A stretch of DNA of 64,000 nt from Candidatus Marinacidobacterium sp. (GCA_965202845.1 OZ241856.1:1155886-1219885); one strand, 5' to 3'; counted from the first letter of the stretch, positions 5,660 through 63,449 are shown. The notes: generated by a model not told the origin, from the sequence alone. Translations and numbers: made by a program.

Positions 5660-7275
<1,616 letters not shown>

Positions 7276-7279
<4 letters not shown>

Positions 7280-7887
7280 AAGACATCCTCGCGGCTTCCG
7301 AGTACGCCGCGTTCCAGGAGCGGCTGGCGCGAAGCGACTGCCGACGGTGCCCGCTCGGCGAAACCCGCACCCGCATCGTGGTGGATCGGGGGACGCCGCA
7401 AGCGCGCCTGCTGGTGGTGGGCGAGGCGCCGGGCGCCGCCGAGGACGCCTCCGGCGTCGCGTTTTGCGGACGGGCCGGCACGATGCTGGACCGGCTGGTC
7501 GCCGACGCCGGACTGTCCCCCGGCGAGGACCTCCTGATCGTGAACGTGGTCAAGTGCCGCCCGCCGGGAAACCGCGCGCCCACTCCGGAGGAAGCCGAAG
7601 CCTGCCGCCCCTTCCTCGACAAGCAGCTTGGCTTCTCCCCGGCCCGGATGGTGGCGCTGCTGGGCCGCACCGCGCTGCGGCGCTTCGCGCCCGACCGCGC
7701 CCGTCGTCCGATGGGGGAGCAGGCGGGACGCTTCTTCCGGATCGCCGGGCATCCGGGGCGCGAGTTCGCGGTTCTCTACCACCCGGCGGCGATCCTCTAC
7801 AACCGGCGGCTGGAGCCGACGGCGCGGCGGCACATGGAGGCGGTCGCCGCCCGGCTGTCTACCGGAACAGCGAACGCCGGGGGCTGA
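7276..7887 (+). CDS. uracil-DNA glycosylase, family 4 (Fe-S type)
   Basis: CRRCPLGETRTRIVVDRG...LLVVGEAPGAAEDASGVAFCGRAGTMLDRL, the family-4 UDG signature. The TTG start overlaps the mutase stop (TTGA). Confidence 0.75.
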
Positions 7888-8539
7888 GCTCCCGGATCAC
7901 CGGCCAGTCCCAAGCATGCCGCGTCCCCTGCGGAAGCGCGCCGACGTCCCGGTGGTAGCGCCGCAGGAACGCCTCGGTGCCCTCGTTCGCGTAGCCGGCG
8001 CCGTGGACGGGACCGAGCTCCTCGCCGCACCGCTCCCGGTAGTCGCGGCGGATCCGGTTCAGGAGTTCGGCGAACAGCCGATCCCGCCGCACCTTGGCGA
8101 TGACGCTGGCGGCGGCCACCGCCACGTGGCGGGACTCGGCCCGGTCCCGCGCCTCCATTTCGGGAACCTCGGTGGCGAGACTCCCGAACACCTTCTCTCC
8201 GTCGGCGAGGATCCGCCGGGGCTTCCGGTCGGCGGGGATCGCGGCGAGCAGCGAACGCGCCGCCTCGCGCTCCAGCAGGTTCAGTTCGCCGACCAGTGCG
8301 CGGCGATCCACTTCCTCCGCCGACAGCGCGCGAACCCCCACCCACTCGGCCAGTCGCTCGACGTGGCGGGCCAGCTGGCCGCGGCGGCCGGCGGCCGGAC
8401 CGCCCGCTCCGAAATGCTTCGAGTCCCGCACGCCCAAGCGGGTCAGGGCGCCGGCGCGACGGGGATGGAGGAGCACCGCGGCCACCACCAGCGGCCCGAG
8501 CGCCGGTCCGCGGCCCGCTTCGTCGATGCCCAGAACCAC
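7859..8539 (-). CDS. rnhB: ribonuclease HII
   Basis: N-terminus VLGIDEAGRGPALGPLVVAAV... with RNase HII fold motifs. GTG start. Confidence 0.9.
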   Translation of the reverse strand: MVLGIDEAGRGPALGPLVVAAVLLHPRRAGALTRLGVRDSKHFGAGGPAAGRRGQLARHVERLAEWVGVRALSAEEVDRRALVGELNLLEREAARSLLAAIPADRKPRRILADGEKVFGSLATEVPEMEARDRAESRHVAVAAASVIAKVRRDRLFAELLNRIRRDYRERCGEELGPVHGAGYANEGTEAFLRRYHRDVGALPQGTRHAWDWPVIRELSPRRSLFR

Positions 8540-8583
8540 CCCCGAATCCTAGGTCGGTCGCCTAGAATCCGCTCGAAATTCAC

Positions 8584-10038
8584 ATGAAACGGGGCGAAGG
8601 GCGGTACAACGCCGTCGTCATCGGCGCCGGAACCGCCGGGCTGGTGACCGCGGCCGGGACCGCCGGACTCGGCGGGCGGACCGCGCTGGTCGAAGCGCGA
8701 CGGATGGGCGGGGACTGCCTGAACACCGGGTGCGTGCCTTCCAAGTCGCTGGTCTCCACCGCGAAGCAGATCCACCGGATCCGCAACGCGGAAGCCCACG
8801 GGCTGGACGCGAACGAACCGAAGTTCCGCTTCGAGCGGGTGTTCGAACACATGCGCGAACGTCGGGCGCACATCGCCCCCCACGACTCGGTGGAGCGATT
8901 CGAGGGACTGGGAGTGGACGTATTCCAGGCGCGGGCGCGCTTCACCGGACCGCGCGAAGTGGAGCTGGACGATGGAACCCGGCTGACCGGCGCCCACTTC
9001 GTGATCGCCACCGGCGCCAGCCCCCTGATCCCGGACATCCCCGGCCTCCGGGACGTCCCGTACTGGACCAACGAGACGTTCTTCGACGGCCAGGACGGCC
9101 CGCCCGATGCGTTGCTGGTGTTGGGAGGCGGTCTCGTCGGCTGCGAGTTGAGCCAGGTGATGCGGCGGCTGGGAGTCCGGGTGACCCTCCTGACCGACGT
9201 GGACCGGCTGCTTCCGCACGACGACCGGGAGGCCTCGCAGGTTGTCCTCGAGGCGTTCCAGGCGGAGGGCATCGAGGTTTTCTTCGGCTGCAAGGTTCGG
9301 AGGTTCACGCAATCCAGCGGCGCCATCACCGCCGAGGTCGAAACCGGGGGCGCGGTGCGCGAGGTCTCCGGCGACCGGCTTCTGGTGGCCGTCGGACGCT
9401 CGCCGAACGTGTCCGATCTCGGACTCGAGAAGGCGGGGGTGCGTTTCGACCCGCAGCAGGGAATCCCGGTGGACCGGAGTCTGCGGACCAACATCCCGCA
9501 CATCCACGCCTGCGGCGACGTGACGGCCGAACCCTTCCGCTTCACCCACGCCGCCGACCACCAGGCGCGGGTGGCGGTGCGGAACATCCTGCTGCCTCCC
9601 CCGTTTCCCCGCGCCCGGGTGGACTACAGATACCTGCCCTGGGTGACGTATGTGGACCCCGAAGTCGCCCATTTCGGCCTCCGGGAAGAGGACGCGGAGG
9701 AGCAGGGCGTCCCGGTGGACGTCCATCGGTATCCGATGAGCGACCTGGACCGGGCGATCACCGAAAATGCGACCCGCGGGTTCGTGAAGGTGGTCGCCGC
9801 CCGGGGGAAGGACCGCATCCTGGGGGCGACCGTGGTGGCGGATCGGGGCGGCGAAATCCTCCACCAGATCATGGCGGTGGCCCGGCAGGGAGGCGGACTC
9901 GGCGCGCTCTCCTCGATGATCCACGCCTATCCTTCCTGGGCGCAGGCGGCGCAGCGGGTCGGTGACGCCTGGAACCGGACCCGGCTGACGCCCCGGACCC
10001 GGGCCCTCTTCGAGTGGCTCTACCGGAGGCGGCGATGA
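8584..10038 (+). CDS. FAD-dependent pyridine nucleotide-disulfide oxidoreductase, class I (dihydrolipoyl dehydrogenase or mercuric-reductase-like). It has no C-terminal Cys pair.
   Basis: GxGxxG sequence VVIGAGTAGL. Redox-active disulfide motif GGDCLNTGCVPSK. The C-terminus carries HAYPSW (cf. the HAHPT interface motif). Confidence 0.8.
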   Translation: MKRGEGRYNAVVIGAGTAGLVTAAGTAGLGGRTALVEARRMGGDCLNTGCVPSKSLVSTAKQIHRIRNAEAHGLDANEPKFRFERVFEHMRERRAHIAPHDSVERFEGLGVDVFQARARFTGPREVELDDGTRLTGAHFVIATGASPLIPDIPGLRDVPYWTNETFFDGQDGPPDALLVLGGGLVGCELSQVMRRLGVRVTLLTDVDRLLPHDDREASQVVLEAFQAEGIEVFFGCKVRRFTQSSGAITAEVETGGAVREVSGDRLLVAVGRSPNVSDLGLEKAGVRFDPQQGIPVDRSLRTNIPHIHACGDVTAEPFRFTHAADHQARVAVRNILLPPPFPRARVDYRYLPWVTYVDPEVAHFGLREEDAEEQGVPVDVHRYPMSDLDRAITENATRGFVKVVAARGKDRILGATVVADRGGEILHQIMAVARQGGGLGALSSMIHAYPSWAQAAQRVGDAWNRTRLTPRTRALFEWLYRRRR

Positions 10039-50154: not shown

Positions 50155-51351
50155 CTACTGCTCCCGCAGCGCTCCCACCACGCTGCGGCGCGCCGCTCCG
50201 ATGGCCGGGGCGATCCCGCCGAGCGCGCCGATCCACAGCGCCAGCGTGATGCCCTGGGCGATCAGGTCCGGGGTGACCCGGAAGGCGAAGGCGACCTGGC
50301 TGAACGAGGCGAAGTTGATGGTCGCGGCGCGGAACCCGTCGAAGAGGAGCCACGACGCCACCCCGCCGAGCGCCGCCCCGATCAGGGCGAAGAGGAGCGA
50401 CTCCGCCATCACCGAGACCACCACCGGAGTCCGGGCGAAGCCGAACGCCCGAAGCGTCGCGATCTCGCGGGCGCGGCTCGAAACCGCGGCGTACATGGTG
50501 TTGAGCGCCGCGAAGACCGCCCCCACCGCCATCATCGCCACGACGATCCAGCCCAGGGTGGTGATGACGGCGTCCATCGCCTCGGACTGCTCGGCGAGGT
50601 ATTCGGTTTCGCGCATCGTGGTGACGTTCACGCGCGGGTCGTCCTCGAGGAAACCCTGAAAGTCGTCGTAGGCATCCGCATCGCTGAGCCGCACCAGAAC
50701 CGAGTTCGACGAGTTCCCCCGCTGGTAGGCGTCGGCGAGGATGCGGCTGTCGGCCCAGATCTCCGATTCGGAAATCCCGCCGCCGGCGGTGAAATGCCCC
50801 ACGACCTCCCAGTCCACGGTTCCGACGTCGATCCGGTCGCCGATCCGGAGCCCCTCGAAGGACTCGACGGCGGCTATTCCGACGATCACCTCGTTCCGTC
50901 CCGGCTCGAACATCCGCCCGTCCCGAATCTCGATCGTGTCCCGCACCGCCATCACGCCGGGCGCCACACCCCGCAGGGGCACGTTCGCATCGGTGCCGGT
51001 CCCCAGCTTTTGCCGGTCGATGATCACGAAAATTTCCGGGGACACCAGCGGACCCGAGGCGCCGCGGGCCACCCCGGGCGCCTCCTCGATGACCTGGACT
51101 TCCGGGCGCGAAAGAACGCTCATGGATTCGGAGACCGAGCCGCTCCGCATCACGATGGCGAAATCGTCGCGCGCCTGTCCCTGGACCATCAGGCGGAATC
51201 CGGTCGCCATCGAAAGCACCGCCACCAGCACCCCGACGACGCCGGCGACCCCGAAGATCGCCACCACCGAGGAGCTCCGGCGCTGCCAGATGGTCTGCAG
51301 GTTGTAGGCGGAAACCGCCCCGATCTGCCTGAGGAAGGAGATGAGTCGCAT
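50155..51351 (-). CDS. ABC transporter permease, FtsX-like (MacB-type), copy 2
   Basis: N-terminal TM, large periplasmic domain, C-terminal FtsX 3-TM bundle (...ATLRAFGF...). Confidence 0.8.
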   Translation of the reverse strand: MRLISFLRQIGAVSAYNLQTIWQRRSSSVVAIFGVAGVVGVLVAVLSMATGFRLMVQGQARDDFAIVMRSGSVSESMSVLSRPEVQVIEEAPGVARGASGPLVSPEIFVIIDRQKLGTGTDANVPLRGVAPGVMAVRDTIEIRDGRMFEPGRNEVIVGIAAVESFEGLRIGDRIDVGTVDWEVVGHFTAGGGISESEIWADSRILADAYQRGNSSNSVLVRLSDADAYDDFQGFLEDDPRVNVTTMRETEYLAEQSEAMDAVITTLGWIVVAMMAVGAVFAALNTMYAAVSSRAREIATLRAFGFARTPVVVSVMAESLLFALIGAALGGVASWLLFDGFRAATINFASFSQVAFAFRVTPDLIAQGITLALWIGALGGIAPAIGAARRSVVGALREQ

Positions 51352-52512
51352 TTACAGCCGCCTCAGTGCGAACGCGGTCTGGAGGCGCATCGCGCGTCGC
51401 GCCGGGAAGACGCCGACGACGAACCCGGTGAGGATCGCGAGCGCCATGCCGAGGACCGCATCCTGGGGACGCAGATAGAAGACGGGAAGGAACTGGGCGA
51501 GGGCCTCCCGGAGTCCGACGGAGGCGCCGACCGCGAACAGCAACCCGACGAAACCGGCGGTGGTCACCAGAACCACCGATTCCAGCAGCACCAGCCGCAT
51601 CACCTGGGCGCTGTTGAAGCCGAGCGCCTTCAGCAGCCCGATCTCGCCGACCCGCTCGCGCACCGACTGCGCCATGGTGTTGCCGGCGACCAGCAGGATG
51701 GTGAAGAAGACCGCGCCCAGAATCGAGGTCACGATGAGGCCGATGTTCCCGACCTGGTTGACGAAGCCAGCGGCGAACGCGCCCTCCGGCTCCGACTTGG
51801 TCTCCGCCGGGGAGTTGCGGAAGAGCGCGTCGATCTCCGCCGCCACCTCGGGCGCCCGGTCCGGGTCGGCGACCCGAACCATGTACCAGCCCACCGTCCC
51901 GCGCCCGAAGGCGCGGGTCTCGTCAAACATGTCGTAGCGGAACAGGAACTGGTTGCGGTCGAAGCCCTCCACGACGACGTCGTAGACCCCGACCACTTCG
52001 AACTCCCACGCCTCGTCCTGCCGTCCCTGCTGCTGCCAGATGGTGGGCTGGATGGGAACGCGGTCGCCGACTTCCCATCCGAAGCGCTCCACCAGCCCGC
52101 GCCCGACGACCGCGCCGCTCCGGGTCTCCACCCACCGCCGGCGCGCCGCCTCCGGAAGCGAGAGCTCCGGGTACATGTCCAGGTATTCGAGCGGGCGCAC
52201 CGGGGACTGCATGAAGAAGTTGGACGGATCCTGGTAGACGCCGCCGAACCAGGTCATGTGCATGGCGTCGATGACGCCCGGAATGTCCTCGATCCGACTC
52301 TCGTAGGACTCGGGGAGCACCTGGAAGAGCGACACCCGGTGGCGCACCACCAGCCGCTGCTCGTCGGCGAGCTCCACCCCGGCGCCGAAGGCGGTCCGCA
52401 GCATCGAGAGCAACCCGAACATGAAGAACGCCACCACCACCGAGAGGAACGTGAGAACGGTGCGGGTCTTCTTGCGGCGGAGCGCGGCGACGATCAGCGA
52501 AAGCCCCTTCAT
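51352..52512 (-). CDS. ABC transporter permease, FtsX-like (MacB-type), copy 1
   Basis: Same architecture (...GLLKALGF...). Its stop abuts the downstream permease start. Confidence 0.8.
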   Translation of the reverse strand: MKGLSLIVAALRRKKTRTVLTFLSVVVAFFMFGLLSMLRTAFGAGVELADEQRLVVRHRVSLFQVLPESYESRIEDIPGVIDAMHMTWFGGVYQDPSNFFMQSPVRPLEYLDMYPELSLPEAARRRWVETRSGAVVGRGLVERFGWEVGDRVPIQPTIWQQQGRQDEAWEFEVVGVYDVVVEGFDRNQFLFRYDMFDETRAFGRGTVGWYMVRVADPDRAPEVAAEIDALFRNSPAETKSEPEGAFAAGFVNQVGNIGLIVTSILGAVFFTILLVAGNTMAQSVRERVGEIGLLKALGFNSAQVMRLVLLESVVLVTTAGFVGLLFAVGASVGLREALAQFLPVFYLRPQDAVLGMALAILTGFVVGVFPARRAMRLQTAFALRRL

Positions 52513-53213
52513 GGCGCCGATTTCCCGTTGTCGAGCCGCCCGTCGTCGAGGTGGAGCACCCGGCTGGCCCGCTCGGCGGCGTGCGGGTCATGGGTGACCA
52601 TCAGGATCGTCTTGCCCTGCTCGCGGTTCAGGATCCCCAGCAGGTCCAGGATCTCGTCGGTGTTCTTCCGGTCGAGGTCGCCGGTGGGCTCGTCGCAAAC
52701 CAGCAGCGCCGGATCGTTCACCAGCGCCCGGGCGATGCCGACCCGCTGCTGCTCGCCTCCCGAGAGCTGGCGCGGGTAGTGGCGCCCGCGGTCGGCGAGC
52801 CCCACGATGTCGAGCGCGATCCCCACCCGGCGGCGGCGCTCGCTGGCGGAGAGCGCGGTCAGAAGCAGCGGCACCGCGACGTTGCCGCGCGCATGGAGCG
52901 CGCCCAGCAGGTTGGCGAACTGGAAGACGAACCCGATGTAGCGCGCCCGGAACGCCGCCAGCCGCCGCTCGGACATGGCGTGGACCGGCTGGCCGGCGAC
53001 CACCACCTCCCCGCTGCCCGGCCGGTCGAGACCGGCGATCAGATTGAGCAGGGTGGACTTCCCGGACCCCGAAGGGCCCATCAGCGCCAGGAATTCGCCC
53101 TGGGGGATGTCCAGCGACAGGTCGCGCAGCACCGGAACCGACCGCTTTCCCTGGCGGAAGCTGCGGGTCACCGAACGGACCGAAACCATTGTCCCGTTGT
53201 CGCTCTCCGTCAT
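52509..53213 (-). CDS. ABC transporter ATP-binding protein (MacB/LolD-type)
   Basis: Walker A GPSGSGKST. Signature LSGGEQQRV. Walker B LLVCDEPTGDLD. H-loop THD. 4-nt overlap with the permease. Confidence 0.85.
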   Translation of the reverse strand: MTESDNGTMVSVRSVTRSFRQGKRSVPVLRDLSLDIPQGEFLALMGPSGSGKSTLLNLIAGLDRPGSGEVVVAGQPVHAMSERRLAAFRARYIGFVFQFANLLGALHARGNVAVPLLLTALSASERRRRVGIALDIVGLADRGRHYPRQLSGGEQQRVGIARALVNDPALLVCDEPTGDLDRKNTDEILDLLGILNREQGKTILMVTHDPHAAERASRVLHLDDGRLDNGKSAP

Positions 53214-53238
53214 GCCGTTGCGTCCTTTCTTCGGAAAA

Positions 53239-54492
53239 TCAGGGTGTGGCGGCGCCCATCTCCGCCACCTCGTCGCCGTCCGAGAGGCCTTCGCGCCCCT
53301 CAACCACCACCCGGTCGCCCTCGGCGAGCCCGGAGAGCACGAACACGTCCGCGCCCTGCGCGTCGCCGACCCGGATCGCGCGCCGCTGGACCCGGCCGTC
53401 GCGCACCAGCAGCACCAGGTCGCGTCCGGTGTCCTGGAAGACCGCGGCGGCGGGCGCCAAGAGACCCTCCGGCGCCGCCGAGGGCTCGGCCTCGGCGGAG
53501 CGGAAGCTCACCTTCACCCCCATGTCGGGGAGAATCCGGTCGTCGAGCTCCTCGAATCCGATGCGCACCCGAACGGTCGCCCGATCCCGGTCGGCGGTGG
53601 GAATGATGGCGATCACCCGCGCCGGGATCGTCCAGTCCTCGTAGGAATCGAGGACGGCGTCCACCGGCTGCCCGGGAGCGACCCGGTTGATGAACGCCTC
53701 GTTCACGTCCACCTCGATCTCGCGCGAATCCATGTCCACGATGGTTCCGACTCCGGTGCGGGTGAACCCGGCGCCGCCGGCGATCGGCGACATCATTTCG
53801 CCGGGCTGGGCGTTCTTGGCGGTGATGACCCCGGCGAACGGCGCCCGCACCACGGTGTCCTCGATCTGCTGGCGGATCACGTCGAGCTGCCGCTCCGCCA
53901 CCCGGATGTCCTCCCGCTGCCGCTCGATGCGCGCCTCGAAGGTCGCGACCTCGCCGTCGACCCGGTCCAGATCGGCCTGGCCGGACACCCCCTCGGCGAC
54001 CAGCTGGCGGAGCCGCGCCTGCCGGGTTCGGGCCTCGCCCAGCTGGGCCTCCACTTCGGCGACCATCTTCCGCGCCGATTCGGCCTGCGCCTCGGCGAGC
54101 CGCAGGCTGCGTTCGAGGTTCGAGGCGTCCAGCCGGGCGAGCACCTGGCCGGGCGCGACTTCCATCCCCTCCTCGATGAGGATCTCGGTAATCTGCCCCG
54201 CCGCCTTGGAGGAGACGGTGGCCTGGCGCCGGGCGGTCACGTAGCCGCTCGCGTTCAGGACGGTAGTTCCCGCCGAGACCGCGGTGGCGCGGACCCGGGC
54301 GGTGCGCACCTCCGGGAGCTCGGGTTCGGATCCCAGCAGTCGGAACGCGGCGAAGCCGCCGCCCAGAACCAGAACCACCCCAAGCACCGCGGTCCAGACC
54401 GCAACCGCGCGGCTCCCGCTGCGCGCCTCCTCGTGGATGCGAAGCTCCGCCAGCCGGCTGGCCGGTTTCACCCCGGAGTCGGTTTCGCTCAT
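53239..54492 (-). CDS. efflux transporter periplasmic adaptor subunit (HlyD/MacA family)
   Basis: N-terminal TM, long coiled-coil, lipoyl/beta-barrel domains. First gene of the MFP-ABC-permease operon. Confidence 0.8.
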   Translation of the reverse strand: MSETDSGVKPASRLAELRIHEEARSGSRAVAVWTAVLGVVLVLGGGFAAFRLLGSEPELPEVRTARVRATAVSAGTTVLNASGYVTARRQATVSSKAAGQITEILIEEGMEVAPGQVLARLDASNLERSLRLAEAQAESARKMVAEVEAQLGEARTRQARLRQLVAEGVSGQADLDRVDGEVATFEARIERQREDIRVAERQLDVIRQQIEDTVVRAPFAGVITAKNAQPGEMMSPIAGGAGFTRTGVGTIVDMDSREIEVDVNEAFINRVAPGQPVDAVLDSYEDWTIPARVIAIIPTADRDRATVRVRIGFEELDDRILPDMGVKVSFRSAEAEPSAAPEGLLAPAAAVFQDTGRDLVLLVRDGRVQRRAIRVGDAQGADVFVLSGLAEGDRVVVEGREGLSDGDEVAEMGAATP

Positions 54493-54539
54493 CGCCGCCC
54501 TCCCCTACGACCGGGGAGTCGAAAAAGTTGCATCGGACT

Positions 54540-55254
54540 TCATGCGGGATCGTACCACCGCCGCCAACGGACGAACGGGAGATACGCCAGCAGGAACATA
54601 CCGAGCCCAACCATTTCGAGGAACAGCAGATACCAGGGCCAGGGCGCGAAGAAGAAGGGGGAGACGCTGCCGCCGGGCGGGCTGGAGAGGAACATGTAGT
54701 TCGATCCCAGCAGCAGGTTCGCGATCGCGACCGGAACCGCCAACAGGTTCATGTACAGGAAGGCCCGGAACAGTCCTCCGAGCGACGGGCGCATCCCGAG
54801 TCCCCAGGTGGCGACCGCGACTCCGGCGACGATGCCGCCGTGGGCGATGAAGTACTGGAAGAAGCGGTACGCGGGAAACCCGACGTCGATGTTGCCGGGC
54901 GTGAGCACCGCGCTCCCCGCGCCCACCATCCCCCAGAACCAGGCGATCTCGTAGGCGCGCTTACGCCGAAAGATCAGGGTGACGGCGGTCAGGAAGACGG
55001 CCACGCCGCACAGGTGCAGCGGGAGGTGGTTCCGCAGGAATCCGTCGAACCCGATCTGGACGACGCGGATCGTCCACCAGGCGAACTCGTTCAGAAGCAG
55101 CGTGGCGGCCAACCCGTAACGGACCGCGTTTCCGACCGCCGGCGACCCGCGCCGGACGGCGAGGCAGAGCGCGACCGGAACGGCGACCGTGAGTCCGATC
55201 GCCGCCAGGTGGGGGACGCCGAAGGTCGGGAATCCGCCGTTCAAGCGACCTCCG
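54540..55254 (-). CDS. TIGR02206/YwaF-like integral membrane protein
   Basis: Seven-helix hydrophobic protein with LPLHLCGV and NYMFL motifs. A TTG start is assumed, because the in-frame upstream sequence overlaps the GNAT gene. Confidence 0.5.
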
Positions 55255-55870
55255 CATCCGCCGGCAGTACCAGCAGCGCGCCGTATCCGGCGCAGACCGG
55301 ATCGGACACGTAGTCCGGGATCAACCCCCGCGGGCGGAATCCGATCCGCAGCTGGACGGAAATCGTCGGATCGGAACGCTCCCCGGCCAGCAGCTCCCGG
55401 TAGTAAGTTTCCGCGTCCATCCGGTCGGCGAGCGCCCCGTACCCGGCGAGCAGCCCCACCGTGGCCTGGCCGGCCAGATGGAGACGACGGACGGCCCGCT
55501 GGCGCGCCGCGTAGAGCGCCCGGGCGACCCCCCGCCCCCGCCATTCGGGAATCACGCCGAGGTCGGCGCCGTAGAGCCAGGCGCCCTCCGGATGGTGGGC
55601 GGAAAGCCAGCCGCCGCCGAAGATCCGGGAGAACGAGTGCGGCTCGAACGCCAGACGCTCCTCCACCCGGAGGGTGGTGGTGGCGCCGATGACGTCCCCT
55701 TCGTCGGCGACCGCGACGAACTGACCTTCGGGAAACATCTCCACGTGATGCCGGTAGTGTTCGGCCAGGAAGCGCTGGTCGGGCGCCAGCGTCGGGAAGA
55801 TCACCGCCTGGAGCGCCGCCAGCGCCTCGGCGCGCTCCGCCGCCGTTGGCAGGACCCGGAACCCGCTCAC
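55241..55870 (-). CDS. GNAT family N-acetyltransferase
   Basis: About 209 aa with an acetyl-CoA-binding-like segment ...VIPEWRGRGVARALY... The GTG start overlaps the SSS stop (GTGA). Confidence 0.6.
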   Translation of the reverse strand: MSGFRVLPTAAERAEALAALQAVIFPTLAPDQRFLAEHYRHHVEMFPEGQFVAVADEGDVIGATTTLRVEERLAFEPHSFSRIFGGGWLSAHHPEGAWLYGADLGVIPEWRGRGVARALYAARQRAVRRLHLAGQATVGLLAGYGALADRMDAETYYRELLAGERSDPTISVQLRIGFRPRGLIPDYVSDPVCAGYGALLVLPADAEVA

Positions 55871-57354
55871 GACCGGGGACGACGGAGCGCCAGCAGTCCC
55901 AGCCGGTCCCGGGGCGCGACCGGACGCCCGGCGGCGTCCACGATGGGGCGCGGCGGATGCGTCTTGCCGGTCAGGAGCGAAACCAGAACCGTCGCCGCCA
56001 GCGAGGCGGCGGTCGCGACCAGCGCGCCGGGGAACTCCGCGTCGCTTCCGGTCCCCCACGAGATGAGGAGCGTGGCCAGCCAGACGCCGATGCCGGCGAG
56101 GATGCCGGCCACCGCGCCGGGGCCGTTGGTCCGCTTCCAGTACATCCCCAGGGTCAGGGGCGCGAAGAGCCCCACCATGATGACCGTCCAGGACTCGACC
56201 ATCAGCGAGTAGACGCTCTGGAACAGCAGCGCGACGCACAGCGCGAGGCCGCAGAAGAACACCACCCCCAGCCGCACCGCGATGAGGACTTCGCGGGACG
56301 AGAGGTCGGGCGCCAGGTTCCGCACGATGTTCTGACCGAAGACGCTCGCCGGCCCCAGCAGGCCGCTGTCCGCCGAGCTCATCAGGGCGGCGAAGAGCGC
56401 GCCCAGGAAGAGGGCGAAGCCGAGCGGGGGCAGGTACTCCATCGCCAGCACCGGCACGATGTGCTCCGGGTTCTCGAGCGCCGGGAAGAGCTGGGCGCCG
56501 ATCAGCCCGAGTCCGACCGGGATCAGGCCCACCAGCCAGTACATCGCCCCGGCGCCGTAGGCGCTCCACTGCGCCACCCATTCGTTCTTCGAGCTCAGCG
56601 CCCGCTGCATGAGATCCTGGGCCGGCAGGTTGCCGAGTCCGATCACGAGCCACGCCTGGACGAACAGGCACCATTCGAGGATGCCCCCGGTGGGGAAAAA
56701 GCGCGTGGCTTCGGCGGAGAGGTTGGCGAAGGCGGCCTGGGCCCCTCCGGCGGCCGCCAAAACGAGCGGCGCCAGGATCAGGAGCGCCGCGATCAGCACG
56801 ATCGACTGGAAGAAGTCGGTGAGGGTGACGCTCCACATGCCGCCCAGCACCGTGTAGAGCAGCACGACTCCGGCGGCGATGAGGATCGCGGTGGTGGAGT
56901 CCAGGTCGGTCATCGCGGTCAGGATGGTTCCCACCGCGACCAGCTGGGAGCCGACCCAGCCGATGTACGCCGGGAAGATGGCGACCGCCGAGAGGATTTC
57001 GGCGGCCCTTCCGAAACGGCTGCCGAAGAAGTCGGAGACGGTGGTCAGCCGGAGCCGGCGCAGGAATCGGACGTAGAACGCTCCGGCGAGAAAGAGGCAG
57101 AGCCCAGCGCCGAAGGGGTCCGCGACCACCGCCGAGAGCCCGCCGGCGTAGGCGGCGCCGGCGGCGCCGATGAGGGTGCCCCCGCCGAACCAGGTGGCGA
57201 AGAGGGTGCAGGTGCAAAGGAGGACGCCGAGCCGGCGCCCGGCCACCACGAAGTCGGCGGCGTTGCGGACCCGCCGGGCGCTGACCGCCCCGATGACCAA
57301 AAGCGCCGCCAGGTAGACGACCGCGACTCCCAGAACCAGCGCCGTCGCGGACAC
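55867..57354 (-). CDS. sodium:solute symporter (SSS) family transporter
   Basis: 13-TM SSS pattern (...FVVAGRRLG...GGGTLIGAAGAAY...). GTG start. Confidence 0.85.
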   Translation of the reverse strand: MSATALVLGVAVVYLAALLVIGAVSARRVRNAADFVVAGRRLGVLLCTCTLFATWFGGGTLIGAAGAAYAGGLSAVVADPFGAGLCLFLAGAFYVRFLRRLRLTTVSDFFGSRFGRAAEILSAVAIFPAYIGWVGSQLVAVGTILTAMTDLDSTTAILIAAGVVLLYTVLGGMWSVTLTDFFQSIVLIAALLILAPLVLAAAGGAQAAFANLSAEATRFFPTGGILEWCLFVQAWLVIGLGNLPAQDLMQRALSSKNEWVAQWSAYGAGAMYWLVGLIPVGLGLIGAQLFPALENPEHIVPVLAMEYLPPLGFALFLGALFAALMSSADSGLLGPASVFGQNIVRNLAPDLSSREVLIAVRLGVVFFCGLALCVALLFQSVYSLMVESWTVIMVGLFAPLTLGMYWKRTNGPGAVAGILAGIGVWLATLLISWGTGSDAEFPGALVATAASLAATVLVSLLTGKTHPPRPIVDAAGRPVAPRDRLGLLALRRPRS

Positions 57355-57361
57355 GGAGCGG

Positions 57362-58381
57362 TCAGCTTCCGGCGCGCCGTCGGTACGCCTGGGTCCCGTA
57401 CACCTCCGGGTTCACGCAGTTGGGGGCCGGTTTCCGGTTCAGGTGGGCGATCGCGTTTTCGGCGCACATGGTGGCCATCCGGTCCCGGGTGGCGAAGCTC
57501 GCACTCGCGATGTGGGGGAGGATCACCACCTGGGGCAGCTCGGCGAGGCCGGGCGCCATCGCCGGCTCGTGCTCGAAGACGTCCAGCCCCGCGCCCCCGA
57601 TGGCGCCGGAGCGGAGCGCCTCCACCAGCGCCGCCTCGTCCACCACCGGCCCGCGGGCGGTGTTGATCAGGATGGCGGTCGGTTTCATCAGCGCGAACGC
57701 CCGGGCGTCGAAGAGATGGCGGGTCGAGGCGTTCAAGTCGGTGTGGATGCTCACGAAATCGCTGCGCCGCAGCAGGTCGTCGAACTCGGCGTACTCCACG
57801 TCGTCGCGGGCTTTGAGGATGTCCCGCATCGGCGGGTCGAACGCGAGCACATCCATGTCGAAGCCCTGGGCGCGGCGGCGCATCGCCTGTCCGATGCGTC
57901 CGAAGCCGACCACGCCGAGCGTCTTGCGCCGTCCGTCGCCGCCGGGACTCACATCGGCGCCCAGCATGAGCGCCGGCCCCCAGATGCGGTAGCGCCCGCC
58001 GCGCATCCAGGCGTCGGCCTCCACCACCCGGCGGGCGGTCGCCATCAGCAGCGCCCAGGCCAGGTCGGCGGTGGTGTCGGTGAGGACTCCGGGGGTGTTG
58101 CTGACCGGAACCCCGAGCTCGGTGGCGGCCGGGATGTCCACGTTGTTGAAGCCGACCGCGTAATTCGCCACCCCGAGCAGCGTCGGGATCGAGAGCAGCT
58201 CCCGGTCCACCGCCTCGGTGAGCAGCGAGACGTGCACCTGGGCGGAGCGGGCGCCTTCGAGCACCCGGTCCCGGGGGACGGCGGCATCGTCGGCCATCCC
58301 GGCGATTTCGACCTCGCCCGCCGCGCGGAGCATGGCGAGCCCGGCGTCGGGGATCTTGCGGGTCACGAAGAAACGGCTCAT
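57362..58381 (-). CDS. D-isomer-specific 2-hydroxyacid dehydrogenase (glyoxylate/hydroxypyruvate reductase-like)
   Basis: NAD-binding GVVGFGRIGQAM. Catalytic R/E/H residues (...ARGPVVDEAAL...DVFEHEP...ILPHIAS). Confidence 0.85.
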   Translation of the reverse strand: MSRFFVTRKIPDAGLAMLRAAGEVEIAGMADDAAVPRDRVLEGARSAQVHVSLLTEAVDRELLSIPTLLGVANYAVGFNNVDIPAATELGVPVSNTPGVLTDTTADLAWALLMATARRVVEADAWMRGGRYRIWGPALMLGADVSPGGDGRRKTLGVVGFGRIGQAMRRRAQGFDMDVLAFDPPMRDILKARDDVEYAEFDDLLRRSDFVSIHTDLNASTRHLFDARAFALMKPTAILINTARGPVVDEAALVEALRSGAIGGAGLDVFEHEPAMAPGLAELPQVVILPHIASASFATRDRMATMCAENAIAHLNRKPAPNCVNPEVYGTQAYRRRAGS

Positions 58382-59685
58382 GCGGCGACTCCCAGGGCGG
58401 TTTCGTCTTCGAGGAAGCGTTGGAATCCGGCGGCGTCGGCGACTCCGGCGGCGATTCGGGCGATCCCCTCCCGGAGGGAATCCATGTCGGCGGCGTAGGA
58501 AAGCCGCAGGAAGTCCTGCCCCTCGCTGCCGATGACGCCGAAGCTGCGCCGGTCCACCAGCGCCACTCCGTGGAAATAGAGGAGGAAGCGGGACACCAGG
58601 GTGGCGGGGCTGGTGCGGCGGCGCACCGATTCGGGCTGCGCCCGGAACCAGGCGGCGGCGCCCAGCGACTCGCAGGCGCCGGCGATGTTCGGGAAGACGT
58701 AGAACGCCCCCAGCGGGTTGGCGCAGCGGACGCCGGGAATCGCGTTCAGCGCCGGAACCACGAAGTCCCGGCGGCGGCGGAATTCCTCCACCATGCCCCG
58801 CACCACTCCGGCGGTCTCCGGGCTTTCGAGCGCCTCCCGGGCCGCCTCCTGGATGAACGGCGGGGTGCAGCTCACCGTGTTGATGTTGATCTGCTTGAAG
58901 CGAAGCGCCTCCTCGGCGGTCGGCAGCACCGTCCAGCCGAGCCGCCAGCCGGTCATCGCGAACCCCTTGGAATGGCCGCTGGCGATGATGGTGCGCTCGC
59001 GCATCCCCGGAATCGAGGCCATCGAAACGTGCTGGAACCCGTCGAAGGTGATGTGCTCGTAGATCTCGTCGGAGTAGATGCGGATGTCGGGGTTCGCCCG
59101 GCGCCGCACCAGGTCGGCGACCTCCTCCAGCAGCTCGCGCGACAGCACGCCGCCGGTGGGGTTCGAGGGCGAGCAGAGCATCAGCACCTTGGTGCGTTCG
59201 GTCAGCAGCCGGTCCAGATCGGAGGCGTCGAACGAAAAGCCGCGATCCTCCCGGAGCAGGAGCGGCTTCGGGACGCCGCCCAGGTAGGTGACCCAGGACT
59301 CGTAGATCGGGAAGCCGGGGCTCGGATAGATGACCTCGTCGCCGGGGTCCACGTAGGCCATCATCGTGTAGCCGATCGCCGGCTTCGCCCCGGAGAGGAC
59401 GATCACCTGCTCCGGCGCCACCGGAATCCGGCGTGTCCGCTCTACGTGGGCGGCCACCGCCTTGCGGAGCGGCGGGACTCCGGCCGGGTCGGTGTAGTGG
59501 GTGTCCCCGCGCCGGATGGCGGCGATTCCGGCCTCGTTGATGTGGGGGGCGCTGTCGAAGTCGGGCTCCCCGATGGTGAAGGGGATGACGTCCACGCCCC
59601 GGGCGCGGGCGCGGGCCATGTCCTCCCCGATCTTGAAGGCGTTCTCCGTGCCCATCTGGCCGAAGCGCCTGGCGAACAATGACAT
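58378..59685 (-). CDS. pyridoxal-phosphate-dependent aminotransferase, class I
   Basis: ...NPTGGVL... with the PLP-lysine region SGHSKGFAMTGWRLGW. 4-nt overlap with the dehydrogenase start. Confidence 0.85.
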   Translation of the reverse strand: MSLFARRFGQMGTENAFKIGEDMARARARGVDVIPFTIGEPDFDSAPHINEAGIAAIRRGDTHYTDPAGVPPLRKAVAAHVERTRRIPVAPEQVIVLSGAKPAIGYTMMAYVDPGDEVIYPSPGFPIYESWVTYLGGVPKPLLLREDRGFSFDASDLDRLLTERTKVLMLCSPSNPTGGVLSRELLEEVADLVRRRANPDIRIYSDEIYEHITFDGFQHVSMASIPGMRERTIIASGHSKGFAMTGWRLGWTVLPTAEEALRFKQININTVSCTPPFIQEAAREALESPETAGVVRGMVEEFRRRRDFVVPALNAIPGVRCANPLGAFYVFPNIAGACESLGAAAWFRAQPESVRRRTSPATLVSRFLLYFHGVALVDRRSFGVIGSEGQDFLRLSYAADMDSLREGIARIAAGVADAAGFQRFLEDETALGVAA

Positions 59686-59757
59686 TCCGAAGTCCCCTGG
59701 TGGTTCTGATACGTCCGGTGGGGGGCGGATGATACAATGCGCCGGCAGAGGGACACC

Positions 59758-60204
59758 ATGCTCGGCCTCGCGTTTCTCCTGACGCTCGCCCTGCCGGGGG
59801 ACGCCGACCAGCCGACGTCGCCGCTGCTGGAGGCGGCGCTCCAAAAGCGCGCCGAGGTCGAGCGCGTCCGCGCCGCGTTCGGTCCCGCGCCCCGGCTCAC
59901 CGACCACGACCTCGCCCCGGACCCGCACCGGCCGGGTCCCGACGAGGCGCTGGCGCCCTCCGGCGCGCGGGAGGCGCCCCTGCCGCCGGTGGAATCGGCG
60001 CCTCCCCCCAAACCCGCGGAGTCCGAGAGCGACCTCCGGGAGCGCCTCGCCGATCTGGAGGCGGCGCTGGTCGGGATCGGCGCGAGCGGCCTGCCGCTGG
60101 CGCCCCGGGACCCCAACCGGTTCCGAAGCGCCCTGGACGCCGCCCGCATCCGCGCCGAGATGGAGGACATCCGGCGCGAACTGGCGAAATTCCCCGAGAG
60201 ATAG
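59758..60204 (+). CDS. hypothetical secreted protein
   Basis: Signal-peptide-like MLGLAFLLTLALPGDA. No recognisable domain. Could instead start at 59737. Confidence 0.3.
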   Translation: MLGLAFLLTLALPGDADQPTSPLLEAALQKRAEVERVRAAFGPAPRLTDHDLAPDPHRPGPDEALAPSGAREAPLPPVESAPPPKPAESESDLRERLADLEAALVGIGASGLPLAPRDPNRFRSALDAARIRAEMEDIRRELAKFPER

Positions 60205-60415
60205 CCCCAAGGGGACCGAAAGGGCGCGCCGGGAACACCCCCCAAGCGTCCAGCGCCCCCTCCCGGAACCAGAATCCTTCTCCGCCCGATCCGCTAAATC
60301 CCGGATAAAACACGGGATACTCACGAATTCCGCAAACTGGATCTCTGCGCTATTTGGGGCAACTTGACATTGGATAAAACTGGGTAGACTGCATAGACTG
60401 ATCAGACTGGGTAGA

Positions 60416-60431
60416 CCACAACCAGTAGTGG
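60416..60431. promoter_or_regulatory. putative NrdR box 1 (CCACAACCAGTAGTGG)
   Basis: Imperfect 16-bp palindrome resembling the NrdR operator consensus acaCwAtATaTwGtgt. Lies 32 bp upstream of box 2. Confidence 0.5.
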
Positions 60432-60447: not shown

Positions 60448-60463
60448 CCACTACATCTAGTGG
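60448..60463. promoter_or_regulatory. putative NrdR box 2 (CCACTACATCTAGTGG)
   Basis: Near-perfect palindrome ACCACTA-N4-TAGTGGT. Lies 230 bp upstream of the nrdJ ATG. Tandem boxes 32 bp apart are typical of NrdR sites. Confidence 0.55.
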
Positions 60464-60692: not shown

Positions 60693-63449
60693 ATGGAAAT
60701 CCGGACTCCCGATCTTCAGACCCCTTCGTCCCCGCCCCTGGCCGTCCCCGATCCCGCCCCCGCCGGGGGGCTCCGGTTCGAGCGCGTCTTCACCCCCGCC
60801 GGCGTCTCCCCGTTCGACACCGTCGAGTGGGAGTCCCGGGACGCGGTGATCACCGACGAGCGCGGCGACACGATCTTCGCCCAGCGCGGCGTCGAATTCC
60901 CGAAGTCGTGGTCGCTGATGGCCACCTCGATCGTGGCCTCCAAGTACTTCCACGGGTCGCTGGAGAAGGGCGAGCGCGAGTCCAGCGTCCGGCAGCTGAT
61001 CGGCCGGGTGGCCGGCCAGATCGCCAGCTGGGGGCGCGAAGGGGGCTACTTCGCCGACGACGCCTCGGCGGACGCCTTCGAGGACGACCTCGCCTGGCTG
61101 CTGCTCCACCAGCGGGCGGCGTTCAACTCGCCGGTCTGGTTCAACTGCGGCGTCGAGAAGCGCCCGCAGTGCTCGGCCTGCTTCATCAATTCGGTCGACG
61201 ACACCATGGACTCGATCCTGACCCTGGCCCGGACCGAGGGGATGCTGTTCAAGTGGGGGTCGGGAACCGGCTCCAACCTCTCGGCGATCCGCAGCTCCCG
61301 GGAGCGGCTGTCCGGAGGCGGGATCGCCAGCGGGCCGGTCTCGTTCATGCGGGGCTACGACTCCTTCGCGGGCGTCATCCGGAGCGGGGGCAAGACCCGC
61401 CGCGCCGCCAAGATGGTGATCCTCAACGTGGATCACCCCGACATCCTCGACTTCATCGACTGCAAGTCGCGCGAGGAGCAGAAGGCCTGGGCGCTGATCG
61501 GCGCCGGCTACGACGCTTCCCTGAACGGCGAGGCGTACGCGTCCATCCAGTACCAGAACGCGAACCACAGCGTGCGGGTCAGCGACGCCTTCATGGAGGC
61601 GCTGGAAAACGACGCCCTGTGGGAGACCCGGGCGATCACCAGCGGCGACGTCATGGACACCATCCGCGCCCGCGACGTGATGCGGCGGATCGCCGAATCC
61701 ACCCACCTTTGCGGCGATCCCGGCATGCAGTTCGACGACACCATCAACCGCTGGCACACCTCGCCGAACAGCGGCCGGATCAACGCCTCGAACCCCTGCT
61801 CGGAGTACATGTACCTGGACGACTCGGCGTGCAACCTGGCCTCGCTGAACCTGATGCAGTTCCTCGACGGCGCCGGGGAGTTCGACACCCCGGCGTTCGA
61901 GCAGGCGGTGCAGGTGCTGATCACCGGCATGGAGATCATCGTGGGGAACGCGAGCTACCCGACTCCCCGGATCGAGGAGAACTCGCATCGGTTCCGCCCG
62001 CTGGGTCTCGGCTACGCCAACCTGGGCGCGCTCTTGATGCACTACGGGCTGCCCTACGACAGCGATTCGGGACGGGCGGTCGCCGCGTCGATCACCTCGC
62101 TGATGACCGGCGCAGCCTACGCCCAGTCCGCCCGGATCGCGGGCGCGGTCGGCGTGTTCGAGGGCTATCCGGAGAACCAGGAGTCCTTCGGGAAGGTGAT
62201 GCGGATGCACCAGGGCGCGGCGCAGGACATCCCCGGGGACGGGGCGCCCGCCGACCTCCACCAGCGCAGCCAGGACGTCTGGGCCGAGGCCATCGCCCTG
62301 GGCGAGGCGCACGGCTACCGGAACGGGCAGGCTTCGGTGCTGGCGCCGACCGGCACCATCGGCCTGATGATGGACTGCGACACCACCGGCGTGGAGCCGG
62401 ACCTGGCGCTGGTGAAGCACAAGAAGCTCATCGGCGGGGGGATCATCCGCATCGTCAACCACACGGTGCCGGCCGCGCTCGAGCGGCTGGGCTACAACCC
62501 GGCCGAGGTGGAGACCATCTGCAGCCACGTGGACGAGCACGGCCACGTGGAGGGAGCGCCCGGGCTCGATCCCGACCATTTGGCGGTGTTCGACTGCGCC
62601 CTCAAGCCGGCGGACGGCGAGCGCGCCATCCACCACATGGGGCACGTCCGGATGATGGCGGCGGTCCAGCCCTTCCTCTCCGGCGCGATCTCGAAGACGG
62701 TGAACATGCCCGAGGACAGCACCGTCGAGGACATCGAGAAGACCTACGACGCCGCCTGGAAGCTGGGCGTCAAGGCGATCGCCATCTACCGCGACGGCAG
62801 CAAGCGGTCCCAGCCCCTGAACATGGGCAAGGAGACCGCCGATGGAGACGCGGCGCCCGCCGCCCCCGCCCCGTCGTTCGAGGGGGAGACCCTCCCCGCC
62901 GAACGGGAGGCGATCATCCACAAGTTCGACATCGCCGGGCACAAGGGGTATCTGACCGTGGGGCTCCGGCCCGACGGCACGCCCTGCGAAATCTTCCTGC
63001 GCATGGCGAAGGAGGGATCCTTCGTCTCCGGGCTGATGGACGCCTTCGCCCGCGCCATCTCGTACAACCTGCAGTACGGGGTTCCCCTCCGGGTCCTGGT
63101 GGACAAGTTCTCCCACACCCGCTTCGAGCCCTCCGGCTACACCGGAAACCCGGAAATCCCGCACGCCGAATCGATCACCGACTACATCTTCCGCTGGCTG
63201 GAGCGGCGCTTCCTCGATGAGGAGGACGGCGAGGGAGCAAGCGCCCGGCCCGACGAGCCGGAGGGATCGGTGGGCGGCGGCAACGGCGGCGGATCGAACG
63301 GATCGCTCCGCCCCCGGACCGACCGGATCCTGCAGCCGGCGGCGGTCTTCGCCGATGCCCCCCCCTGCTCGACTTGCGGCGCGCTCATGGTTCGCAGCGG
63401 CACCTGCTTCAAGTGCCTGAACTGCGGCGCGACGTCCGGCTGCTCCTGA
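60693..63449 (+). CDS. nrdJ: vitamin B12-dependent ribonucleotide reductase (class II, NrdJ)
   Basis: N-terminus ...LRFERVFT...SPFDTVEWESRDAVI... Active-site region ...NPCSEYM...CNLASLNL... C-terminal Zn-ribbon-like CSTCG...CFKCLNCG. 918 aa. Confidence 0.9.
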   Translation: MEIRTPDLQTPSSPPLAVPDPAPAGGLRFERVFTPAGVSPFDTVEWESRDAVITDERGDTIFAQRGVEFPKSWSLMATSIVASKYFHGSLEKGERESSVRQLIGRVAGQIASWGREGGYFADDASADAFEDDLAWLLLHQRAAFNSPVWFNCGVEKRPQCSACFINSVDDTMDSILTLARTEGMLFKWGSGTGSNLSAIRSSRERLSGGGIASGPVSFMRGYDSFAGVIRSGGKTRRAAKMVILNVDHPDILDFIDCKSREEQKAWALIGAGYDASLNGEAYASIQYQNANHSVRVSDAFMEALENDALWETRAITSGDVMDTIRARDVMRRIAESTHLCGDPGMQFDDTINRWHTSPNSGRINASNPCSEYMYLDDSACNLASLNLMQFLDGAGEFDTPAFEQAVQVLITGMEIIVGNASYPTPRIEENSHRFRPLGLGYANLGALLMHYGLPYDSDSGRAVAASITSLMTGAAYAQSARIAGAVGVFEGYPENQESFGKVMRMHQGAAQDIPGDGAPADLHQRSQDVWAEAIALGEAHGYRNGQASVLAPTGTIGLMMDCDTTGVEPDLALVKHKKLIGGGIIRIVNHTVPAALERLGYNPAEVETICSHVDEHGHVEGAPGLDPDHLAVFDCALKPADGERAIHHMGHVRMMAAVQPFLSGAISKTVNMPEDSTVEDIEKTYDAAWKLGVKAIAIYRDGSKRSQPLNMGKETADGDAAPAAPAPSFEGETLPAEREAIIHKFDIAGHKGYLTVGLRPDGTPCEIFLRMAKEGSFVSGLMDAFARAISYNLQYGVPLRVLVDKFSHTRFEPSGYTGNPEIPHAESITDYIFRWLERRFLDEEDGEGASARPDEPEGSVGGGNGGGSNGSLRPRTDRILQPAAVFADAPPCSTCGALMVRSGTCFKCLNCGATSGCS

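Follow-up and report, generated by a model that had tools for sequence, protein, structure and literature searches.

A string of five genes lies on the minus strand of a 64,000-nucleotide (nt) stretch of DNA from Candidatus Marinacidobacterium sp. (GCA_965202845.1 OZ241856.1:1155886-1219885). The whole stretch is called the window here, positions are counted from its first letter, and the string occupies 54540-59685. The first gene (58378..59685) encodes a 435-residue, pyridoxal phosphate (PLP)-dependent class I aminotransferase, subgroup I-beta-like (PF00155, E = 1.4e-57). It is followed by genes for a D-isomer-specific 2-hydroxyacid dehydrogenase of the GyaR/GRHPR type (57362..58381; 339 residues; PF02826 and PF00389), an SSS symporter of the SLC5A7/CHT branch (55867..57354; 495 residues, GTG start; PF00474, E = 2.9e-44), a GNAT-superfamily protein with a predicted CurA-type GNAT-like decarboxylase fold (55241..55870; 209 residues, GTG start; PF00583, 26 bits against a cut-off of 20.7) and a predicted TMEM164-related integral membrane acyltransferase (54540..55244; 234 residues, TTG start; PF14808, E = 1.8e-45; TIGR02206, 126.8 bits against a cut-off of 75). 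An earlier reading of this DNA by a model (the sequence-only reading) had described the string and named these five families, and both descriptions were borne out: all five gene models are identical to independently called proteins on one public contig of 2,864,726 bp, the 234-residue TTG-start protein included, and Pfam and NCBIfam profile matches place each gene in the family named.

The genes are packed very closely. In the sequence itself, the genes for aminotransferase and dehydrogenase share the bases ATGA (58381..58378, a 4-nt overlap), the SSS and GNAT genes share GTGA (55870..55867), and 7 nt (57361..57355) separate the dehydrogenase gene from the SSS gene, all as first described. A 14-nt overlap had also been proposed between the GNAT and membrane-protein genes, but this is wrong. 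The true overlap is 4 nt (TTGA), with the membrane-protein gene starting at a TTG at 55244 and a GGAGG four bases upstream of it. Counted from 55254 the gene would be 715 nt long, a length not divisible by 3, and no start codon is present there in frame; the ATG at 55257, on which the 14-nt overlap seems to depend, is out of frame with the gene, and TTG 55244 is the first in-frame start. This tight packing is real but ordinary for a genome of ~2.9 Mb with a GC content of ~70% around the string, since 4-nt overlaps recur at other junctions in the window, for example between ABC and FtsX genes at 52512..52509.

Co-transcription of the five genes is probable: start and stop codons overlap at three of the four junctions, the remaining junction is a gap of 7 nt, and nothing within the string makes a convincing terminator-like site. 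The sole terminator-like match is inside the SSS coding sequence, and such matches were fewer than in shuffled sequences. An Rfam scan of 54-61 kb gave no matches, and a scan for sigma-70-type promoters, which was not tuned to Acidobacteria, found none inside the dehydrogenase coding sequence. On the evidence of the junctions and the missing terminator, the single operon of the sequence-only reading is held to be likely.

The aminotransferase aligns with PF00155 over profile positions 2-361 of 361 (195.9 bits, cut-off 19.7), and the PLP-lysine motif SKGFAMTGWRLG is present in its translation; the full-length profile match above the curated cut-off and the PLP-binding lysine motif place it in class I/II. 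It scored below the cut-off on all 25 NCBIfam models listed, the best being aspartate transaminase models (NF004769, NF005816 and others; 267 bits against 617-620). Its nearest solved relatives are the Arabidopsis prephenate/aspartate aminotransferase and Rhizobium aspartate aminotransferase (AspAT) A/B (E = 1e-64 to 1e-67). Identity is 82-93% in about 23 related metagenome-assembled genomes (MAGs) and 70-73% in soil relatives.

The dehydrogenase has both domains of the D-2-hydroxyacid dehydrogenases (PF02826, 192.8 bits; PF00389, 81.8 bits), the GxGxxG motif and the catalytic Arg/Glu/His residues, with the motifs GFGRIG, NTARG, DVFEHEP and PHIAS visible in its translation. The closest model is the glyoxylate reductase equivalog PRK13243, although the score is under its cut-off (328.6 bits against 455), and among solved structures the nearest is that of a Pyrococcus glyoxylate reductase (2dbq, E = 8.7e-81). 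Judged by these families, the pair may plausibly interconvert an amino acid, a 2-oxo acid and a D-2-hydroxy acid. The same chemistry had been suggested for the string as a whole, and it remains plausible for these two genes, which are conserved with their 4-nt overlap across Vicinamibacteria. The most likely substrates, because of the reductase type, would be glycine, glyoxylate and glycolate, or serine, hydroxypyruvate and glycerate. To our knowledge, no described operon pairs a GyaR/GRHPR-type reductase with a class I aminotransferase.

The third gene clearly encodes an SSS protein (PF00474, 152 bits, cut-off 22.8), with a marginal score on TIGR00813 (182.5 bits, cut-off 184). Among proteins of solved structure it comes closest to two choline transporters, bacterial sfCHT (9rws, E = 1e-48) and human CHT1 (E = 7e-39). 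The choline site of sfCHT consists of W99, Y126, W176, W298 and W445 (bioRxiv 10.1101/2025.09.30.678764), which in a sequence alignment correspond to W55, A83, W133, A245 and M385 of the window protein, so that two of the five cage residues are kept. Among 16 SSS homologues, down to ~46% identity, the Y126 position is Ala in 14 and Ser in two, and the W298 position is Ala, Gly or Ser in all. A choline transporter identity was rejected on this cage comparison, and the protein is a member of the choline-transporter branch with a different and probably roomier pocket. Homologues at ~50% identity adjoin a Peptidase_S58 gene or stand alone. In L084, L085, L088 and L089 (3759-6467; retrieved loci are cited by L-numbers) they are directly downstream of the Peptidase_S58 gene, which is of the DmpA/BapA aminopeptidase type, and this partner is a hint that the SSS subfamily carries amino-group compounds.

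The GNAT protein is the least ordinary part of the string and a lead worth following. Membership of the superfamily is indicated by its PF00583 score, by an intact acyl-CoA loop (RGRGVA, residues 111-116) and by its fold. It had no NCBIfam match at E <= 0.01, which leaves EctA, AblB and SpeG-type identities unsupported, and a sequence search of the PDB gave marginal matches only. The family itself is large, with at least 599 homologues, and an alignment of 21 sequences at 55-78% identity has ~60 invariant columns. An AlphaFold2 model (predicted local distance difference test score, pLDDT, 93.5) was compared with the PDB by Foldseek. The five best matches are the GNAT-like decarboxylases GphF, SxtA and CurA, with template modelling (TM) scores of 0.79-0.81 over ~205 residues; ordinary acetyltransferases rank next at TM ~0.6, among hundreds of GNAT structures that match. 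A profile of the family also aligns full length to the SxtA decarboxylase domain (E = 0.02).

The CurA subfamily is defined by a catalytic pair of Thr or Ser with His, which in CurA are Thr355 and His389, with Arg404 nearby (PMC3701320; bioRxiv 10.1101/2025.03.07.642089). The catalytic residues were located in the CurA, SxtA and GphF sequences and carried through the profile alignment to the window protein, where, by that borderline alignment (E = 0.02), Thr355 falls on L141 (L/P in the family), His389 on the invariant Q173 and Arg404 on V188. At this E value the register near Thr355 could be off by a few residues, and an invariant T137 is four residues upstream of position 141. Going by the alignment, the Ser/Thr and His pair of the decarboxylases is absent. 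The protein has a CurA-type fold but appears to be without the catalytic pair, and because the pair appears absent it is not filed as a decarboxylase. The N-acylation proposed in the sequence-only reading is putative, the nearest structures being decarboxylases; we infer that the protein would act on its substrate with an acyl-CoA, most likely by N-acylation.

The last protein aligns with positions 3-219 of the 222 in TIGR02206 and scores 155.6 bits on PF14808. Among the loci searched by tblastn, L002 and L003 are the only ones besides the window in which a TMEM164-like gene follows the GNAT gene. The closest relative, L001, has a 715-bp gap in the corresponding place (8616-9330), with nothing but frameshifted TMEM164-like fragments in it, 39% identical over 92 residues; here the last gene of the string was recently pseudogenised. 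The gene, predicted to encode a membrane acyltransferase, looks like a recently added and dispensable accessory. We know of no bacterial TMEM164/TIGR02206 member with a known substrate.

Conservation of the string was examined in 80 genomic loci obtained with the GNAT family alignment, of which 73 carry a GNAT orthologue, by tblastn of the window proteins and of reference neighbour proteins against the retrieved loci. The closest loci are on complete MAG chromosomes of ~2.3-3.0 Mb labelled Vicinamibacteria, and L001 is 93% identical in the aminotransferase. SSS is directly upstream of GNAT in 23 of the 73 loci, all labelled Acidobacteria, Vicinamibacteria or 'Candidatus Marinacidobacterium', and the aminotransferase, dehydrogenase, SSS and GNAT genes are in the window order in 22 of these 23 (22/73 overall). 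Four genes are found together in 22 MAGs of the same clade and all five in three genomes only, the window included; the five-gene arrangement was not seen in soil Vicinamibacteria or in other phyla. The soil relatives (aminotransferase 70-73% identical, contigs of 1.4-7.3 Mb) have the dehydrogenase gene immediately downstream of the aminotransferase gene. Next come a Ser/Thr kinase-WD40 gene and His_Phos_1 on the opposite strand, one locus also having a glucan phosphorylase gene, and there is no SSS or GNAT gene at these loci.

At two deeper Acidobacteriota loci, L035 and L040, the aminotransferase and dehydrogenase genes are followed by kinase, SixA (opposite strand), GlgP and GNAT, in that order, and L035 continues with a class III aminotransferase and Amidohydro_3. 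This order indicates that the aminotransferase/dehydrogenase pair and GNAT are old neighbours with ~5 kb of unrelated genes between them. The two halves of the string also occur apart. L083 has SSS (55% identical) and GNAT (57%) without the aminotransferase/dehydrogenase pair, L053 has SSS and GNAT alone, and in L052 the pair is inverted relative to SSS/GNAT. The sequence-only reading had offered co-localisation in related genomes as a check on its operon, a loss of it counting as refutation: it holds for four genes in the 22 same-clade MAGs, but it is lost beyond the clade, in soil relatives, in L035 and L040 and in other phyla.

The junctions were surveyed with a start-choice heuristic. The 4-nt overlap between aminotransferase and dehydrogenase is kept in eight of nine relatives checked that have both genes, and SSS and GNAT are never more than 14 nt apart in the relatives checked, the closest junctions overlapping by 4 nt. 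The gap between dehydrogenase and SSS is 3-16 nt in the window's subclade only and 52-187 nt in the Marinacidobacterium clade. Each pair is tight, and the seam between the two is looser.

In other phyla the GNAT gene is found in different company. Orthologues that are 50-61% identical occur in a recurring cluster, at loci labelled Myxococcota, Planctomycetota, Sumerlaeota, Gemmatimonadota, Terriglobia, Bacteroidota and Armatimonadota, with the order CN-hydrolase or a GNAT-CN-hydrolase fusion (not always present), GNAT, class III aminotransferase, an optional Amidohydro_3, aldehyde dehydrogenase and an optional DAO-type oxidase. The GNAT half of the fusion is a 33%-identical paralogue of the GNAT protein. 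The class III aminotransferase is directly downstream of GNAT in 37 of the 73 loci and an aldehyde dehydrogenase is within 6.5 kb in 36; the CN-hydrolase is directly upstream in 24. The cluster aminotransferase scores as the 4-aminobutyrate transaminase GabT (TIGR00700, 516 bits, cut-off 506.65), the CN-hydrolase is like the N-carbamoylputrescine amidase AguB (314 bits, under the cut-off of 410), and the aldehyde dehydrogenase resembles the succinate-semialdehyde dehydrogenase (SSADH)/aminobutyraldehyde dehydrogenase group (457-474 bits). Examples are at L081 (1624-7930), L082 (5114-12498) and many of L004-L077, from at least six phyla.

The cluster would follow the logic of acylation, oxidation, deacylation and transamination known from the Puu and Ast pathways. 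It looks like an acyl-dependent route of amine or 4-aminobutyrate (GABA) catabolism that has yet to be characterised, and its gene content, that of polyamine and GABA catabolism, points to amine catabolism as the setting of GNAT in these phyla. From this context the GNAT protein may act on an amine and the SSS protein may import one. A literature search for the GNAT/CN-hydrolase/aminotransferase/aldehyde dehydrogenase cluster, or for a bacterial N-acetylputrescine catabolic route, found nothing that names this GNAT family. In L083, the one distant lineage that keeps SSS/GNAT, a gene at 7128-8996 overlaps the end of GNAT and encodes a 623-residue FAD/NAD(P)-binding oxidoreductase (NAD_binding_8/DAO), which would fit an amine-oxidase-type partner.

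We give slightly better than even weight to the view that the string is a lineage-specific composite operon of at least three functionally independent modules, probably read as one translationally coupled transcript. The first module would be the aminotransferase and dehydrogenase, an old and conserved pair for 2-oxo and 2-hydroxy acids. In the second, the Na+-coupled SSS protein would import a nutrient that is cationic or an amine, for which a diamine, polyamine or omega-amino acid are candidates, and the CurA-fold GNAT would then modify the imported compound with acyl-CoA. The TMEM164-like membrane acyltransferase would be the third, a late accessory. The ancestor may have had the pair and GNAT as neighbours, with ~5 kb between them taken up by the Ser/Thr kinase-WD40, opposite-strand SixA-like phosphatase and glucan phosphorylase genes. 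In the small-genome (~2.9-4.5 Mb) marine clade this kinase-to-phosphorylase block is missing and SSS occupies its place, presumably by loss of the one and gain of the other, and the window's subclade would later have closed the gaps to 4-nt overlaps.

Several points weigh against the composite operon as described. The order of evolutionary events is deduced from a small number of outgroup loci, with no species tree behind it, and the heuristic used in the junction survey favours upstream start codons. The residue mapping between the window proteins and CurA, SxtA and sfCHT depends on sequence alignments, the GNAT-SxtA one being borderline (E = 0.02). The four-gene order is stable in ~23 MAGs, with tight overlaps, and selection for co-expression of one pathway could explain this. 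The amine substrate is suggested by a single line of evidence, the context of GNAT orthologues in other phyla. Amine-catabolic partner genes were sought across the 64-kb window and none was found, the only aldehyde dehydrogenase there (~34.4-35.7 kb) being unrelated, at 30% identity; with no catabolic partners in the window, the case for an amine is weak in the host organism.

A bolder version of the second module, which we regard as doubtful, would make the SSS/GNAT pair the tip of a widespread amine-utilisation system in uncultured bacteria. The CurA-fold GNAT, with a swapped and highly conserved active site, would be the acylating first enzyme of a Puu/Ast-like diamine or GABA route. Its partners in Myxococcota, Planctomycetota, Sumerlaeota, Gemmatimonadota and Terriglobia would be the AguB-like, GabT, SSADH-like, FAD-oxidase and amidohydrolase proteins, and in the marine Vicinamibacteria it would have a dedicated transporter of the choline branch.

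Four other explanations were considered. The string could be one dedicated pathway in which SSS imports an amino acid, the pair converts it to a 2-hydroxy acid, and GNAT and the membrane acyltransferase acylate an intermediate. The start/stop overlaps and 7-nt gap, the four-gene order kept in ~23 MAGs and the coherent chemistry of an aminotransferase with a reductase are all what such a pathway would give, but the modules part outside the clade, most relatives have a loose junction of 52-187 nt between dehydrogenase and SSS, and the membrane protein is dispensable. Moreover, the GNAT orthologues found elsewhere have GabT, AguB-like and SSADH-like genes as neighbours and never the aminotransferase/dehydrogenase pair of the window, and the ~50%-identical SSS homologues adjoin Peptidase_S58 or stand alone. 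We consider this explanation unlikely. A single uptake-and-conversion pathway for all five genes, as the sequence-only reading envisaged, is unsupported, since the modules separate outside the immediate clade.

It is just as improbable, in our view, that the genes are merely adjacent, with internal promoters driving the pair and SSS/GNAT (with or without the TMEM164-like gene) separately and no functional operon. The two pairs are independent units in other genomes, and the 52-187 nt between dehydrogenase and SSS in most relatives leave room for a promoter. In the window, however, this gap is 7 nt and there is no convincing terminator-like site, so a promoter would need to sit inside the dehydrogenase coding sequence, where the sigma-70-type scan (not tuned to Acidobacteria) found none.

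Rather than being an N-acyltransferase, the GNAT protein might work as CurA, SxtA, GphF and malonyl-CoA decarboxylase do, decarboxylating a malonyl-type (carboxy-acyl) thioester without a cofactor. The five best Foldseek matches, over the full length, and the end-to-end alignment of the family profile with the SxtA decarboxylase domain speak for this; but Thr355 and His389 align to Leu/Pro141 and the invariant Gln173, Arg404 aligns to Val188, and a CurA H389N variant was reported to be nearly inactive (PMC3701320), which makes a decarboxylase quite improbable. Highly improbable, finally, is a module for uptake and acetylation of choline (a quaternary amine), serving osmoprotection with the BCCT transporter close by: of the solved structures, those nearest to SSS are the bacterial and human high-affinity choline transporters, and a BCCT gene is 4.5 kb downstream, but three of the five sfCHT cage residues are replaced by Ala, Ala and Met, two of these positions are small across the bacterial subfamily, and the BCCT gene is set apart by a four-gene efflux set and was matched in L001 only among the relatives.

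The string is followed on the same strand by genes that had been described as a MacAB-type efflux operon and a BCCT transporter, and both are confirmed. A spacer of 47 nt (54493..54539, minus strand), read from the sequence between the stop of the membrane-protein gene and the start of the HlyD gene, is the likely boundary of the string. The efflux genes (50155..54492) encode an HlyD adaptor (53239..54492; HlyD_D23), an ABC ATPase (52509..53213; ABC_tran) and two MacB_PCD/FtsX permeases (51352..52512 and 50155..51351; each with Pfam MacB_PCD and FtsX), all on the minus strand, and they are syntenic in relatives. In the Marinacidobacterium clade (L006 8714-9551; L008-L010, L019, L023, L027, L029, L030 and L058) the genes for a conserved 189-residue membrane protein without a Pfam match and a winged-helix regulator of 92-99 residues (HTH_34) lie between GNAT and the efflux genes; the window has neither. 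The two probably serve the pump as its own regulator pair, and because they occupy the boundary position in that clade, the efflux set is a unit separate from the string.

Upstream, the string is bounded by a divergent 155-residue open reading frame (59737-60204, plus strand) with a signal-peptide-like N-terminus and a Pro/Ala-rich middle. It has no Pfam or NCBIfam match, but its position is conserved: tblastn matches on the same relative strand, at 36-63% identity, occur in most relatives. As only 51 nt of intergenic sequence separate it from the aminotransferase start, either at least one promoter overlaps coding sequence or the reading frame starts further downstream. Beyond it, the palindromes CCACAACCAGTAGTGG and CCACTACATCTAGTGG (60416-60431 and 60448-60463, plus strand) lie 32 bp apart centre to centre, downstream of a promoter-like TTGACA-N17-TAGACT site (~60363-60391) and upstream of a gene for a class II (B12-dependent) ribonucleotide reductase that starts at 60693. 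Their appearance is that of tandem NrdR boxes, which would make this regulation of a known kind; the chance expectation for such matches is 0.04 in shuffled sequence. Rfam detected no cobalamin riboswitch up to 61000.

The string suggests that compaction in a small-genome lineage of marine Acidobacteria can weld unrelated modules into one coupled string, and it cautions that tight gene packing alone does not establish a pathway. The GNAT family is large, very conserved and unnamed, and appears to combine the fold of the polyketide-loading decarboxylases with a different active site. In most of the phyla in which it was met, its gene is part of a cluster of the AguB/GabT/SSADH type for amine catabolism. 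Its reaction, together with the substrate of SSS, could add a polyamine or omega-amino acid route, and so a route for dissolved organic nitrogen, in abundant uncultured bacteria.

No described operon fits the whole string, and the closest analogies are at the level of single families. The aminotransferase resembles the class I-beta AspAT and prephenate aminotransferases (PAT; 5wmh, 6f77/6f35 and Thermus AspAT 1bjw) in its full-length PF00155 match, its SK...MTGWR PLP motif and E values of 1e-59 to 1e-67, but it is far under every NCBIfam equivalog cut-off, and its 435 residues compare with 382-410 for most solved AspATs and 475 for plant PAT chains. The dehydrogenase shares the two-domain architecture, GxGxxG motif and Arg/Glu/His set of GyaR (2dbq) and GRHPR (2gcg), although it scores below the PRK13243 equivalog cut-off. 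SSS shares with CHT1/SLC5A7 and sfCHT the Na+-site segment ATW(F/V)GGG and the cytoplasmic Q-R-x-x-S site but, with two of five choline-cage residues, its substrate is probably not choline. The membrane protein passes the Pfam and NCBIfam cut-offs for the TMEM164/TIGR02206 group (TP0381, YwaF) full length; unlike those systems, it is encoded by an accessory gene that decays in the nearest relative.

The GNAT protein has two points of comparison. With the CurA, SxtA and GphF loading domains and malonyl-CoA decarboxylase it shares the extended GNAT fold (TM ~0.8) and a C-terminal DP...G(F)...GxI..Y segment, but it is a stand-alone protein of 209 residues and not a polyketide synthase domain, it has other invariant polar residues, and it appears to do without the Thr/Ser and His pair (L/P141, Q173). 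The second comparison is one of gene context, and none of the partner genes concerned is in the window. The GNAT clusters of other phyla hold GabT, an aldehyde dehydrogenase like SSADH or PuuC, an FAD oxidase like PuuB and an amide hydrolase, and in this they are like the gamma-glutamyl Puu and succinyl Ast pathways of E. coli, in which an amine is catabolised in acyl-protected form by acylation, oxidation or transamination, oxidation and deacylation.

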